Part shown: positions 2,463 to 5,908 of the stretch, piece after piece | How positions within the stretch are numbered: the stretch's first letter is position 1 | Layout of the letters: each line of letters starts with the position of its first letter | Source of the DNA: Methylophaga frappieri | GTDB taxonomy: Bacteria > Pseudomonadota > Gammaproteobacteria > Nitrosococcales > Methylophagaceae | Reading direction: 5' to 3' | Length of the DNA: 32,000 bases | Assembly: GCF_000260965.1 (NCBI RefSeq) | Contig: NC_017856.1 | Coordinates: 960,001-992,000 of the forward strand | Notes under the pieces: model-generated | Databases searched by the model: none | What the model was told of the DNA's origin: nothing | What the model saw: the letters and a program-made list of their open reading frames with translations, nothing else | Program-made: the position numbers and the translations under genes

Positions 2463-3656
2463 ATGCCCACAACCATCACGTTTTTTCCCGTCGACAACGG
2501 GGACATGACCCTCATCAAGTTCGGCGACCTCGACGCAACCACCCTGCTGATCGACGTAAACATCAGGCAAGACGCCGACGACCCTGACGGTGAGGCGCGC
2601 GATGTCGCCAAGGATCTGCGCGACCGACTGAAGAAAGATGAGAACGGCAGGCCGTATGTCGATGCGTTCCTGCTGAGCCACCCGGACCAGGACCATTGCC
2701 GAGGCCTGACGCGGCACTTCCACCTGGGGCCGCTGGACAAGTATCCGGATGACAAGAAGGACGACAAGGACAAGAAGATCGTGATCCGCGAGATATGGTC
2801 GTCTCCGATCGTGTTTCGACGCGCCAGCAAGACGCACACCTTGAGTGACGACGCCAAGGCATTCAACACGGAGGCGCGTCGGCGCGTACAGCTGAACCGC
2901 GACAAGAATTTCGTCGTCGGGAACGGCGACCGCATTCAGATCATGGGCGAGGACATCGACGGAAAAACCGATGATCTCACCTCGATTGTGCGGAAGGTGG
3001 ACACGCGCTTCTCGACGATCAATGGCAAGAGTTCCGCATTCTTCTCCGCGATTCTTCTGGCACCCTTGGACGCCCAGGACGACGAAGAAGAGGAAGAGTG
3101 CCTGGTCAAGAACCAGTCCAGCGTGATCTTGAACTTCACATTGGCCGCTGATGCTCAGACGCCGGATGGCGCAAAATTCCTTACTGGTGGCGATGCCGAA
3201 GTATTTATCTGGAACCGCCAGTGGCAGCGCCACAAGGCCGAAGCCGATGTGCTTGAGTACGACATCATGCAGGCGCCACATCACTGTTCCTGGCATTCGC
3301 TGTCCTATGACAGTTGGTCGGACTACCGCGAAAAGGCCAAACTTGATGCCGACGCTCGCAAGGCGCTTTCGCAGACCCGCAACGGTGCCGTCATCGTCGC
3401 CAGTTGCAAGCCGATCGCAGACGACGACAGCGATCCGCCCTGCATCCGCGCAAAGCGTGAATACGTAGCAATCGTGGACGAAGTAAAAGGCGACTTTTAC
3501 TGCACGGGCGAATATCCGAGCGAAAAATCCGTGGAGCCCCTCGTTTTCACCGTCACCGCTCAGGGTGTGCAGCCTCCCTCGAAGAAGGAAGCCGGATCGA
3601 AGGCCGCCGCCGTGATCACCTCCGCGCGCGCGCCCATGCCACACGGGGCATCATGA
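2463..3656 (+). CDS. MBL-fold metallo-hydrolase, ComEC/Rec2-related type (paralog 1)
   Basis: 397-aa ORF. N-terminal beta-strand signature FFPVDNGDMTLIKF. Metal motif LSHPDQDH (nt 2679-2696), later GGDAEV and APHHCS. Acidic/lysine-rich inserts. Its stop overlaps the next gene's start (ATGA at 3653-3656). Confidence 0.85.
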   Translation: MPTTITFFPVDNGDMTLIKFGDLDATTLLIDVNIRQDADDPDGEARDVAKDLRDRLKKDENGRPYVDAFLLSHPDQDHCRGLTRHFHLGPLDKYPDDKKDDKDKKIVIREIWSSPIVFRRASKTHTLSDDAKAFNTEARRRVQLNRDKNFVVGNGDRIQIMGEDIDGKTDDLTSIVRKVDTRFSTINGKSSAFFSAILLAPLDAQDDEEEEECLVKNQSSVILNFTLAADAQTPDGAKFLTGGDAEVFIWNRQWQRHKAEADVLEYDIMQAPHHCSWHSLSYDSWSDYREKAKLDADARKALSQTRNGAVIVASCKPIADDDSDPPCIRAKREYVAIVDEVKGDFYCTGEYPSEKSVEPLVFTVTAQGVQPPSKKEAGSKAAAVITSARAPMPHGAS

Positions 3657-5908
3657 CGGGCACCATCGCGGACGCACTGCATCAACTTCAGCGGCACAGG
3701 GGCCTTGTCCGCGTTGGCGAGCCAAGGAAAAGTGGTGAATCGACGCAGATTGAAGTCGATGTTGCTGTTGAATTGCCGAGCAGGTCTCGGCGCAATGGCG
3801 TATCCGGGACCGGAGTGCGCTCGGTCGAGACATGCGTTCTGGTATTCGGCAGTGACTGGCCCATGTCTGCACCCAAGCCTTTCTTGCGTGCGGACTTCCC
3901 ACTCAACTTGCCGCACATCAATCCTCATCGCGAAGGCGAGTTGGTCTCGCCTTGTCTGTTCGAGGGATCGTTGGACGAGCTGCTGCATCGGTTTGGTCTG
4001 GACGCCATCGTCGATCAGTTGATCGTTTGGTTGCACAAGGCCGCAGCCGGGACGTTGCTGGACCTTGAACAGGGGTGGGAGCCGACTCGTCGAGACAGTT
4101 GTCCTTCGACCCTTGTATTCAGTGCCGAGAATGTCGCGGCCGCCGCTCCCGCTGACGGCACGATTTTGGTGGTTCCCGCAGGCTACGTGACGATTGATGG
4201 CGGGCTATACGCCATCGTCAATGCCGAACTGACTGCTCAAGTCGATCCTGTGTTCTATCAGGAGGTTCACAACGACAAGTTGGGTAAATGGGGAAATGGC
4301 CATACCGCAGCCTTCATTGCGCGGGCTCCAATAACCGACGGCAACCCGCATGTGGTCGGCCACTATCAACCCGAGACGGTTGTCGATCTCGCGACGTTGC
4401 TTGATCGAGCAGCGGAACTCGGCGTCGATCGTGACGCTTTGGCTCAAGGCTTGGACGGCTACTATGGACGTTCGATTCTGGATATGCAGCAAGACTCGCG
4501 TGGCTGGACGCATGGCTTGTATGCGATTGTGATTCTGACTGTTCAAAGGCCAGCGTCGCTTGTGGGCTCACCGGGGAGAAGTATCGAGGTATTGCCCTAC
4601 GTGGTGCGCTATGAACTCAACGCTCAATCGCTCCTGGAGCGAAACGCCACGGTTCACCCGGCTTTTCACGCACATGCGTTGTCTCCCGAACTGCTGGCAA
4701 GAACGTCCGGCATTCCATCTGCGGCCACATCGCAGCCGCTGGTCTTGCTCGGCTGCGGAAGCGTGGGGTCGAAAATCGCGATGCAACTGGGGCGAGCGGG
4801 TTTCGGCTCAATGACCTTCGTCGATAACGAGTCCATGTCGCCTCACAACGCGGCCCGGCATGCACTCATTGAGCGGGCATCGGTGCTGGTCCCACCTCGG
4901 AAGTCGGCGCTGATGAAGACGGCCTTTGAGTCGCTGTCGCATCTTCAATCGCAAGCGTTCGACACCGACGCAGTGACTCTCTTGGTCGATGCTGCGCAGT
5001 TTGCTGCAACCGTTCCGCAGGATGCGGCCCTCATCGTGGATGCGACAGCCTCACTTCAGGTGTTGGCCGCAGAAACGCAATCAACGGCGCTGAACCAATC
5101 CCCTGCGCGGTTGGCACGGATCGTCATGTATGGCCAGGGGCGCTGTGTCGCGGTTTTGCTTGAAGGGCCTGGTCGCGCCGGTCGGGTTGACGATCTTACG
5201 GCATTCTTGTTCGAGTGCTGTCGGTTTGTGCCGGAACTGCGGGCGTCGATTGCTGGCGATACGTCTGAGCCGACGCGTATTTTTGTGGGCGACAACTGCC
5301 GTTCACTGACGATGCCAATGTCCGATGCCGTTGTTTCGCGTTCTGCTTCATTAGCTGGCCTGCAACTGGAACGCTGGCTCGTTGGCGGACTCCCGAAGGA
5401 GGCGACGCTTTGCGCCGGGGTCTCGGATACCGAAGGCCTCGGCATGGCATGGACCAGCACCAGCCTCGGCCCGACCACTGTGCTCAACGTAGCAGACGAT
5501 GGTGGCTGGAACATTCGGATTCTGCACCCTGTCGTGCAAGCGATCCATGCTGATGCGCTGCGCTGGGGCGCTCTGGAAACAGGTGGAGCCTTGGTCGGTC
5601 GTATCTCGTTTGAGAATCGAACCATCACCATTGCTGGCCTCGTGGATGCGCCGCCTGACAGCATTCGGGAGGCCGCCCGCTTCGTCCTTGGGACGAATGG
5701 GCTTGTTCAAAATTTGCGCACAGCGAATGGAACCTCTTTGGGGTATCTGGCCTTCATCGGCACTTGGCATAGCCACCCGAAAGGCGGCGCACATTCGGGC
5801 ATAGACCGAAATACGTTGCGCGGCATCGCCGAGGATGCTGGCGGCCTTCCCGCCGTGTCGTTGGTATGGACTCCGACAGGACTCAGGTGTGCGGTGGATC
5901 GCTGGTAA
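3653..5908 (+). CDS. E2-like / E1-like (ThiF-type adenylyltransferase) / JAB (JAMM) peptidase triple-fusion protein
   Basis: 751-aa ORF.
- E2-like: PFLRADFPLNLPHINPHREGELVSPCLFEG (HPN-like HINPH at 3914-3928; Cys101 codon at 3953-3955).
- E1 Rossmann: LVLLGCGSVGSKIAMQLGRAG (4751-4771), then FVDNESMSPHNAARH and IVDATAS.
- JAB: ETGGALVGR (Glu642), then WHSHPKGGAHSGID (5768-5806), an HxH..S..D JAMM motif. Confidence 0.85.
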   Translation: MTGTIADALHQLQRHRGLVRVGEPRKSGESTQIEVDVAVELPSRSRRNGVSGTGVRSVETCVLVFGSDWPMSAPKPFLRADFPLNLPHINPHREGELVSPCLFEGSLDELLHRFGLDAIVDQLIVWLHKAAAGTLLDLEQGWEPTRRDSCPSTLVFSAENVAAAAPADGTILVVPAGYVTIDGGLYAIVNAELTAQVDPVFYQEVHNDKLGKWGNGHTAAFIARAPITDGNPHVVGHYQPETVVDLATLLDRAAELGVDRDALAQGLDGYYGRSILDMQQDSRGWTHGLYAIVILTVQRPASLVGSPGRSIEVLPYVVRYELNAQSLLERNATVHPAFHAHALSPELLARTSGIPSAATSQPLVLLGCGSVGSKIAMQLGRAGFGSMTFVDNESMSPHNAARHALIERASVLVPPRKSALMKTAFESLSHLQSQAFDTDAVTLLVDAAQFAATVPQDAALIVDATASLQVLAAETQSTALNQSPARLARIVMYGQGRCVAVLLEGPGRAGRVDDLTAFLFECCRFVPELRASIAGDTSEPTRIFVGDNCRSLTMPMSDAVVSRSASLAGLQLERWLVGGLPKEATLCAGVSDTEGLGMAWTSTSLGPTTVLNVADDGGWNIRILHPVVQAIHADALRWGALETGGALVGRISFENRTITIAGLVDAPPDSIREAARFVLGTNGLVQNLRTANGTSLGYLAFIGTWHSHPKGGAHSGIDRNTLRGIAEDAGGLPAVSLVWTPTGLRCAVDRW

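Follow-up and report, generated by a model that had tools for sequence, protein, structure and literature searches.

Probable identification of a Methylophaga frappieri E2-E1-JAB protein as Cap2_3 of a 6A-MBL anti-phage system, with the neighbouring MBL-fold hydrolase as its likely conjugated substrate

The window analysed here, a 32,000-nucleotide stretch of the Methylophaga frappieri genome (contig NC_017856.1, positions 960,001 to 992,000; all positions below count from its first letter), carries at 3653..5908 on the forward strand an open reading frame (ORF) of 751 amino acids with an ATG start in the ORF list, whose product unites an E2-like domain, a middle domain, an E1-type adenylation domain and a JAB peptidase domain. 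We consider it probable, at roughly 80%, that this is the cap2_3 gene of a 6A-MBL anti-phage system, and that its product is an all-in-one ubiquitin-type transferase and isopeptidase that acts on the MBL-fold hydrolase encoded next to it instead of on a ubiquitin-like protein (Ubl). We rely for this on the NCBIfam equivalog models of both genes, whose cut-offs are exceeded, and on the operon type, which fits row 6a in Table 1 of Iyer, Burroughs and Aravind 2006 (PMC1779556), where an E2-E1-JAB triple-module protein beside an MBL gene was described. The protein and its MBL partner are therefore an ordinary member of an already described system, and not a new one.

Family membership of the 751-residue protein

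Against the NCBIfam equivalog NF058523 ("anti-phage 6A-MBL system cap2_3 protein"), the protein scores 556.1 bits for a cut-off of 320, the match spanning residues 50-738 and the full 665-position profile. Pfam places on it, from the N- to the C-terminus, Prok-E2_A at residues 5-165 (E 5e-56), ThiF at 363-468 (E 4e-11) and Prok-JAB at 626-739 (E 1e-10), a signal well outside what chance would produce, with no match in residues 165-363. This bears out an earlier note on this DNA, made from the letters alone, which had read E2, E1 and JAB signatures in that order from a single chain, and a script check recovered all the motifs it named at the positions it gave. A word-index search with the protein returned 388 matches, ThiF being annotated in all 120 of those listed and Prok-E2_A and Prok-JAB in nearly all of them, and among 50%-identity cluster representatives, searched exhaustively, 2279 matched at E<=1e-3 and 407 at E<=1e-30; the best 150 representatives are nearly all of about 750 amino acids and match from end to end.

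Conservation was read from an alignment of 137 homologues sharing 26-56% identity with the query, to which all invariance statements on this protein refer. AlphaFold2 run on the same alignment yields a model with a mean predicted local distance difference test score (pLDDT) of 95.7, a predicted template-modelling score (pTM) of 0.92 and no disordered segments. When the full-length model is compared with the PDB by Foldseek, E. cloacae Cap2 comes first (7TO3_A, E 3e-24, 654 columns over a 568-residue chain, TM-score TMt 0.66) and Cap2 7TQD_B second (E 2e-20), followed by BubCD, ATG7 (4GSK, 3VH1), ThiF, MoeB, UBA5 and MccB. A profile search of PDB sequences also has Cap2 first (7TO3/7TSQ, E 1e-15, through the E1 domain), and reaches Cap3 9ILD at E 2e-10. 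Region by region, the predicted fold resembles Cap2 in E2 and E1 and Cap3 in JAB, in agreement with the earlier domain assignment.

Alignment to Cap2, which the earlier note had proposed as a check, succeeds over the full length and fades for the middle domain taken alone. With ten full-length Cap2 genes taken from plasmid operons of the anti-phage signalling system based on cyclic oligonucleotides (CBASS) as partner set, hhalign produces one continuous alignment (probability 99.8, E 7e-28) of query residues 2-577 with Cap2 9-576, in which C101 is paired with Cap2 C109 and C549 with Cap2 C548; C109 and C548 are the catalytic cysteines of Cap2 according to its cryo-electron microscopy (cryo-EM) paper.

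Could the protein instead serve metabolism, as a ThiF/MoeB-like sulfur-transfer enzyme or a small-molecule adenylating enzyme? Its database name, "ThiF family adenylyltransferase", and weak matches to ThiF, MoeB and TcdA models would suggest so, but these models score far below their NCBIfam cut-offs (34 bits against 275 for ThiF), for which a metabolic role was rejected. There is moreover no rhodanese domain and no sulfur-metabolism gene in the neighbourhood; the E2 cysteine, the crossover-loop cysteine and the JAMM site are invariant, and the cassette holding the gene is found on integrative and conjugative elements (ICEs) and plasmids together with a CapW regulator. Such a role is highly improbable.

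Catalytic residues of the E2, E1 and JAB domains

The E2-like domain (residues 1-157; 3653..4123, forward strand) holds the motifs HINPH at residues 88-92 and SPCL at 99-102, with His88 at nucleotides (nt) 3914-3916 and Cys101 at nt 3953-3955; H88, C101, W126 and W142 are invariant. Across the family the first motif takes the form H88-[IVL]-[NQ]-P91, 13 residues ahead of C101, with the histidine and proline conserved and position 90 occupied by Asn in 68 and by Gln in 44 of the 137 sequences. This is not the arrangement of a canonical UBC-type E2, where HPN precedes the catalytic Cys by some 7-10 residues; the domain falls in Prok-E2_A, and its alignment to the E2 domain of Cap2 suggests that it resembles the ATG3/ATG10-like E2 described for that protein.

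The E1 or ThiF-type adenylation domain (residues 353-612; 4709..5488, forward strand), detected by Pfam, by the PDB profile search and by hhalign, contains GCGSVGS at residues 367-373 (nt 4751-4771), VDNESMSPHNAARH at 390-403 and IVDATAS at 461-467. Its key residues are the G367-x-G369-S-x-G372-S loop, D391, R402, K417 and D463, and the invariant set comprises G367, G369, S370, G372, S373, D391, R402, K417 and C549. The Mg-binding Asp463 of IVDATAS (nt 5039-5041) is retained in the present protein and is more variable in the family, with Asp in 58 and Asn in 74 of the 137. The earlier note overlooked C549 (nt 5297-5299), which lies within the motif G-x-[GN]-C-x-S-x-T-M-x-M-S-D opposite Cap2 C548; it is the predicted E1 catalytic cysteine, and from that alignment would be expected on the crossover loop, as in ATG7.

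In the JAB/JAMM metallopeptidase domain (residues 613-751; 5489..5905, forward strand), E642-TGG (E642 at nt 5576-5578) and HSHPKGGAHSGID at residues 706-718 (nt 5768-5806) give the layout H706-x-H708-x6-S715-x2-D718, and E642, G644, H706, H708, S715 and D718 are invariant. The six-residue spacer, which the earlier note had remarked on as one short of the usual seven, is real and belongs to the family, being present in 136 of 137 members; seven residues are found in all seven stand-alone Cap3 proteins that were extracted and in the JAB part of one Cap2-Cap3 fusion. Foldseek matches the JAB part to Cap3 9ILD_A (TMt 0.77, root-mean-square deviation 2.6), and the NCBIfam Cap3 model gives the 751-residue protein 15.5 bits against a cut-off of 200. 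By its motifs and its fold, the domain can be classed as a Cap3-like member of the JAB superfamily with the zinc-site residues E/H-x-H/S/D, but not as a Cap3 equivalog. Invariance of the catalytic residues of all three domains, which include the Cys, His and Asp residues singled out earlier, argues for catalytic competence.

The upstream MBL-fold protein and the absent Ubl

Directly upstream of cap2_3, at 2463..3656 on the forward strand, lies the gene for a 397-residue MBL-fold protein that reaches 441 bits (cut-off 220) against NF058524 ("anti-phage 6A-MBL system MBL-fold protein"), and which is the likely effector and likely conjugated substrate of the system. Its stop codon overlaps the cap2_3 ATG by 4 nt (ATGA, 3653-3656), and the MBL gene stands directly before cap2_3 in every related locus with upstream flanking DNA, down to 30% identity. 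A 15-sequence alignment (30-96% identity) shows D14, D31, H73-P-D75-x-D77-H78, G243-D244, H273-H274 and G395 to be invariant; all of these except G395 would form a ComEC-like metal site.

The C-terminal tail of this protein looks disordered and ends ...APMPHG-AS, with Gly395 at nt 3645-3647 followed by Ala396-Ser397. Among about 110 full-length homologues the end is P-[MLR]-P-H-G plus 0, 1 or 2 variable residues, about one third stopping exactly at the Gly. The HG end, bare or followed by two residues, is found in systems whose Cap2_3 shares 30-54% identity with the protein studied here: ...TPRPHG (53-54%), ...AMPHGQK (43%), ...PRGHG (42%) and ...QIPHG (30%). An invariant Gly with a short disposable tail gives the protein a signature like that of a Ubl precursor, parallel to the C-terminus of the CD-NTase in CBASS: Cap2 adenylates and ligates that C-terminus, Cap3 trims it, and mutation of the C-terminal Gly abolishes defence (Cap2 cryo-EM paper). 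The Corbett laboratory likewise groups "Type II CBASS/Pycsar/MBL" as systems in which a fused E2-E1 conjugates its own enzyme.

Remoter MBL partners end differently, in ...GFGCGTE and ...GFGGDTE (loci L047 and L048) or in ...VGFGR (L064, 2850-4157), and not in ...PHG with or without further residues; in L047 and L048 the downstream gene is detectably similar in its JAB part only. These partners with GFG-type ends and their downstream genes probably form a separate subfamily of the same system type.

Where, then, is the ubiquitin? Pfam, PADLOC and NCBIfam give no Ubl family match in the ORFs of the cassette, whose genes are separated by gaps of 6-149 nt; the small beta-grasp Ubl gene with a C-terminal Gly that marks the operons of Ubl-dependent systems (Bil, Bub, types 6d/6e) is thus not found. 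The "missing ubiquitin" is most likely the Gly-ended tail of the upstream MBL protein, to judge from its conserved C-terminus. It could be argued instead that the enzyme conjugates a genuine Ubl encoded elsewhere in the genome, such as ThiS or MoaD, the MBL protein being a co-effector or a target only: Iyer et al. 2006 (PMC1779556) left open an "available ThiS/MoaD" for operons without their own Ubl, and the cassette here has no Ubl gene and an ORF layout with no space for one. This is unlikely, however, given that the MBL C-terminus keeps its precursor-like form, an invariant Gly plus 0-2 residues, down to 30% identity, that the MBL gene always stands next to cap2_3 and is coupled to it in translation, that the cassette moves among more than 30 genera at about 90% identity, which argues for self-sufficiency, and that Cap2, the closest characterised relative, activates a neighbouring enzyme.

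The middle domain

Residues 158-352 (4124..4708, forward strand) form a compact alpha/beta domain in the position of the Cap2 linker or of the ATG7 N-terminal domain. The earlier note had recognised nothing in about residues 160-350; this stands insofar as the segment has no match in Pfam or in PDB sequence profiles, yet it is a conserved and confidently folded domain. Most of it has a pLDDT above 90 in the full-length model, and when folded alone from a 38-sequence sub-alignment it retains a pLDDT of 88 and the same secondary structure. AlphaFold2 predicts seven strands (172-181, 184-189, 202-208, 211-224, 289-298, 311-321 and 331-341), two long helices (246-255 and 260-276) and a further helix at 345-351, in a topology of four strands, two long helices and three strands. 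R299, P300 and E312 are invariant; conservation is lowest at 176-225, and higher near Y238-x-P240, L249, A253, R299-P300, E312 and Y316.

The same note had supposed that a beta-grasp-like module might be hidden here and account for the missing Ubl gene. Neither idea is supported: the predicted seven-strand fold with two long helices has no ubiquitin-like Foldseek match, so that a built-in Ubl was rejected, and the absent gene is better explained by the upstream MBL tail, PHG plus 0-2 residues. Used alone, the domain reaches E 0.14 at best in Foldseek against the PDB, with no ubiquitin-like, Cap2 or ATG7 entry among the top 50, and finds no match in a profile search of PDB sequences or in Pfam at E<=10. 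In hhalign against Cap2 it reaches E 0.12, the best local match joining query 243-275 to Cap2 255-284, the linker helix, in the register of the full-length alignment, which places the whole segment opposite the Cap2 linker (about residues 165-365). PF26398 (Cap2_linker) is not in the precomputed Pfam annotation of the 120 listed homologues, although that annotation includes the family.

In Cap2, a central linker domain of equal size and place has the fold of the ATG7 N-terminal domain, and holds the E2 in place above the E1 site of the partner (Cap2 cryo-EM paper). We regard residues 158-352 as the positional, and probably functional, counterpart of this linker; by our own arithmetic, the full-length TMt of 0.66 to 7TO3 likely exceeds what the modelled E2 and E1 domains alone would yield. 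Does the segment rather form a beta-grasp or Ubl-like module within the chain, or else a substrate-docking module that is new and has no relation to the Cap2 linker, giving the protein a modifier of its own or a separate recognition domain? Its failure to find Cap2 or ATG7 in isolation, the missing PF26398 annotation and the three invariant residues, which suggest a specific function, speak for such a view. Against it are the topology and the Foldseek result just given, the lack of a C-terminal Gly or cleavage motif at the domain end, a length and position equal to those of the Cap2 linker with the 654-column comparison to 7TO3 running through the segment, and the landing of the best local match in the Cap2 linker helix. 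A module of this kind is quite improbable, more so than a Ubl encoded elsewhere, although the counterpart of the Cap2 linker proposed here may itself have a substrate-docking role.

A putative conjugation cycle

Homology to CBASS Cap2 and Cap3, together with conservation, suggests the following sequence of events. The JAB domain would trim the variable tail of 0-2 residues (Ala396-Ser397 here) off the MBL protein, exposing Gly395. The E1 domain would bind ATP-Mg via the G367-x-G-x-x-G loop, D391, R402, K417 and D463, and adenylate Gly395, after which Cys549 on the crossover loop would accept the MBL protein as a thioester. With the E2 held above the E1 active site by the middle domain, probably in an arrangement across an E1 homodimer like that of Cap2, the MBL protein would be handed on from Cys549 to Cys101 and ligated to an acceptor, so that a ComEC-like metal-dependent hydrolase, probably a nuclease, would be primed or relocated. 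The same JAB domain would reverse the conjugate and keep the system quiet in uninfected cells, while the divergently transcribed CapW repressor would probably hold expression off until single-stranded DNA or DNA damage appears.

Several observations weigh against our reading of this protein. The Asn present at position 463 in 54% of the Cap2_3 family is unusual for an adenylating E1. Taken alone, the middle domain gives no significant match to the Cap2 linker, and a role in positioning the E2 is argued from its place in the chain only. Finally, the activity ascribed to the MBL protein, possibly that of a nuclease, rests on weak similarity to ComEC, Avs1a and LmuA-type models.

The cassette and its mobility

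The two genes are part of a cassette (637-7024) composed of a gene for a 262-residue membrane protein, capW, the MBL gene, cap2_3 and a second MBL gene. Copies at about 85-93% nucleotide identity occur in Acinetobacter plasmids and, across more than 30 genera, in ICE-like settings, a distribution that points to horizontal spread both very recent and broad. The cassette has a GC content of about 57%, and the surrounding ICE genes (RadC, DUF932, ParB-like and relaxase) have 64-70%. The host genera span Alpha-, Beta- and Gammaproteobacteria, and window positions 1-8234 are found at about 90% DNA identity in NZ_CP027245.2 and in 11 further Acinetobacter plasmids, with an OXA-58 plasmid among them.

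The capW gene (1472..2374, reverse strand), divergent from the MBL-cap2_3 operon, encodes a WYL-domain transcriptional repressor (Pfam WYL) whose PDB sequence matches, 7TB5 (E 2e-71) and S. maltophilia CapW 7TB6 (E 7e-70), are nearly full length. It is present in all copies of the cassette and in some distant loci. CapW/BrxR proteins derepress adjacent immune operons on binding single-stranded DNA (PMC13373217). Between capW and the MBL gene (2375-2462), neither an inverted repeat nor an operator was found, and a promoter and terminator scan of 600-8600 gave sites no more frequent than in shuffled sequence.

The 262-residue membrane protein, hereafter TM262 (677..1465, reverse strand), has no PADLOC or Pfam match. 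All cassette copies with 74% identity or more contain it, and it recurs as an accessory partner, both with ComEC-like MBL genes and with some 6A-MBL operons. Outside the cassette, its homologues adjoin PDC-M48B-type MBL genes in at least 20 of 32 plasmid records, from Proteobacteria and Actinobacteria. On C. perfringens pCP-TS1, a plasmid found via the TM262 search, a 252-residue homologue is directly followed by an MBL gene scoring 486 bits on a PDC-M48B model; on a Methylocystis heyeri plasmid, the TM262 homologue directly follows and overlaps the E2-E1-JAB gene, in an operon of the order MBL, E2-E1-JAB, TM; and in Rhodococcus DK17 a 6A-like pair stands back to back with a pair formed by an MBL2-like gene and a TM gene. 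A hidden Markov model of the TM262 family, applied to seven divergent 6A loci, detected none within about 7 kb. TM262 is a recurrent accessory, not a universal part of the system.

The second MBL gene (5954..7024, forward strand), which starts 45 nt past the cap2_3 stop, encodes a ComEC-like hydrolase of 356 amino acids without a C-terminal Gly, scoring 511 bits on PADLOC PDC-M48B (PDLC04676) and matching ComEC or competence proteins in a PDB sequence search. Only cassette copies with 84% identity or more were seen to carry it; being absent from 6A loci below about 84%, it is not core to 6A-MBL. TM262 and this second MBL protein appear to constitute an undescribed two-gene module repeatedly associated with 6A-MBL. 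Since the two pair up alone on plasmids from Clostridium to Rhodococcus and bracket MBL-Cap2_3 here, and since the TM gene follows E2-E1-JAB in Methylocystis, either of them could be the conjugation target or an anchoring partner of the activated MBL enzyme. We hold it only as a tentative proposal, and a rather doubtful one, that either the cassette at 637-7024 acts as a functional five-gene unit, or the middle domain of Cap2_3 is a family-specific MBL-recognition domain and not a linker of the Cap2/ATG7 type.

The wider window

Upstream of TM262, the ORF at 63..599 has no PADLOC or Pfam match. Downstream of the cassette, the segment 7025-10068 holds a DUF6685 gene (7175..8233; no PADLOC match), radC (8629..9141) and an ORF at 9410..9799. 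This segment is absent from most ICE copies, where position 7024 directly meets the DUF932/ParB-like backbone found here from 10069 onward, and is a variable insertion hotspot; in the Acinetobacter plasmids the DUF6685 gene is present and positions 7026-7214 are missing. Two pairs of intergenic direct repeats flank the DUF6685 ORF and lie just upstream of radC and of the ORF 9410..9799, with copies in related ICE loci: a pair of 110 nt at 7079-7188 and 8318-8427 (89% identity), and a pair of about 160 nt at 8468-8627 and 9245-9403 (88-98% identity), made of two adjacent repeat families of 61 and 96 nt. Rfam gave no match in the whole window, repeats included, and, as single-stranded DNA, the 160-nt repeat that precedes radC shows no unusual degree of structure (z -0.6). 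Further on, downstream of the relaxase gene (21106..23217), a block of 53-60% GC at 23272-28815 with genes for an APH-family phosphotransferase, an MFS transporter and a LysR regulator is probably ICE cargo.

Significance and comparison with known systems

As the re-finding of a catalogued defence system, this identification by itself changes little. What it adds is a family-wide argument from sequence that the MBL enzyme would be the conjugated moiety, built on the invariant Gly395 and its removable tail of 0-2 residues, together with two family signatures, Cys549 and the x6 JAMM spacer. A middle domain that is not recognisable as a Cap2 linker merits structural comparison, and the recurrence of TM262 and the second MBL gene with 6A-MBL could point to the conjugation target.

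The covalent union of writer (E1/E2) and eraser (JAB), which the earlier note had set apart from the separate Cap2 and Cap3 proteins, is real but not unusual. Operon type 6a, described since 2006 and now covered by a curated equivalog, is defined by this union, which is no departure from known biology. Cap2-Cap3 fusions exist within CBASS too: a Halobaculum roseum plasmid (L053, 957-3293) encodes a 778-residue E2-E1-JAB fusion with an x7 spacer beside a SAVED-domain effector in an archaeal CBASS operon, so that the architecture is not exclusive to the 6A family, and the PADLOC E1-E2 models include some with a JAB part.

The ubiquitination-like bacterial operons Bil (BilABCD) and Bub, which serve in defence or stress, also have an E1, an E2 and a JAB-type peptidase working together, and the E1 domain studied here weakly matches BubCD. 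In contrast to the present cassette, with no Ubl gene, they come with a Ubl of their own and with enzymes that are separate or fused in another way, and Bub employs Ser/oxyester chemistry, whereas both cysteines are invariant here.

Resemblance to ATG7 and its partners ATG3/ATG10 shows in the Foldseek matches 4GSK and 3VH1 (E ~1e-9), in a profile match to the ATG7 adenylation domain, and in a domain N-terminal to the E1 that sits where the E2 is recruited by the N-terminal domain of ATG7, as described for Cap2. The bacterial protein differs in having its E2 fused in cis, a JAB domain appended and no Ubl of the ATG8/ATG12 kind, and global TM-scores are low (0.24-0.31).

Closer still is Cap2 of Type II CBASS (7TO3, 7TQD), the best structural match, with homologous E2 and E1 domains, aligned catalytic cysteines and, for a substrate, not a Ubl but an adjacently encoded enzyme whose C-terminal tail is flexible, as would also be the case here. 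Sequence identity is about 14%, however; Cap2_linker is not recognised in the middle domain, and the partner is an MBL hydrolase. Type II CBASS differs further by its CD-NTase, cyclic-nucleotide effector and SAVED domain, none of which is present in this case: no nucleotidyltransferase or SAVED family was matched in the seven ORFs of the cassette region (63-8233) with Pfam, PADLOC or NCBIfam. Compared with Cap3 (9ILD), the JAB domain is fused, as in some CBASS, and has an x6 instead of an x7 spacer.

With 6A-MBL itself (operon type 6a; NF058523 and NF058524), the locus shares the two-gene core, the E2-E1-JAB order and the specialised MBL directly upstream, so that the text of PMC1779556 fits exactly. 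Later papers list 6A-MBL among the known jumbo-phage defences of P. aeruginosa and call it a validated ubiquitin-related defence. Nothing essential sets the present copy apart from that system; it resides in a widely transferred cassette, in the company of capW, the 262-residue membrane protein and a second MBL gene of the PDC-M48B type.

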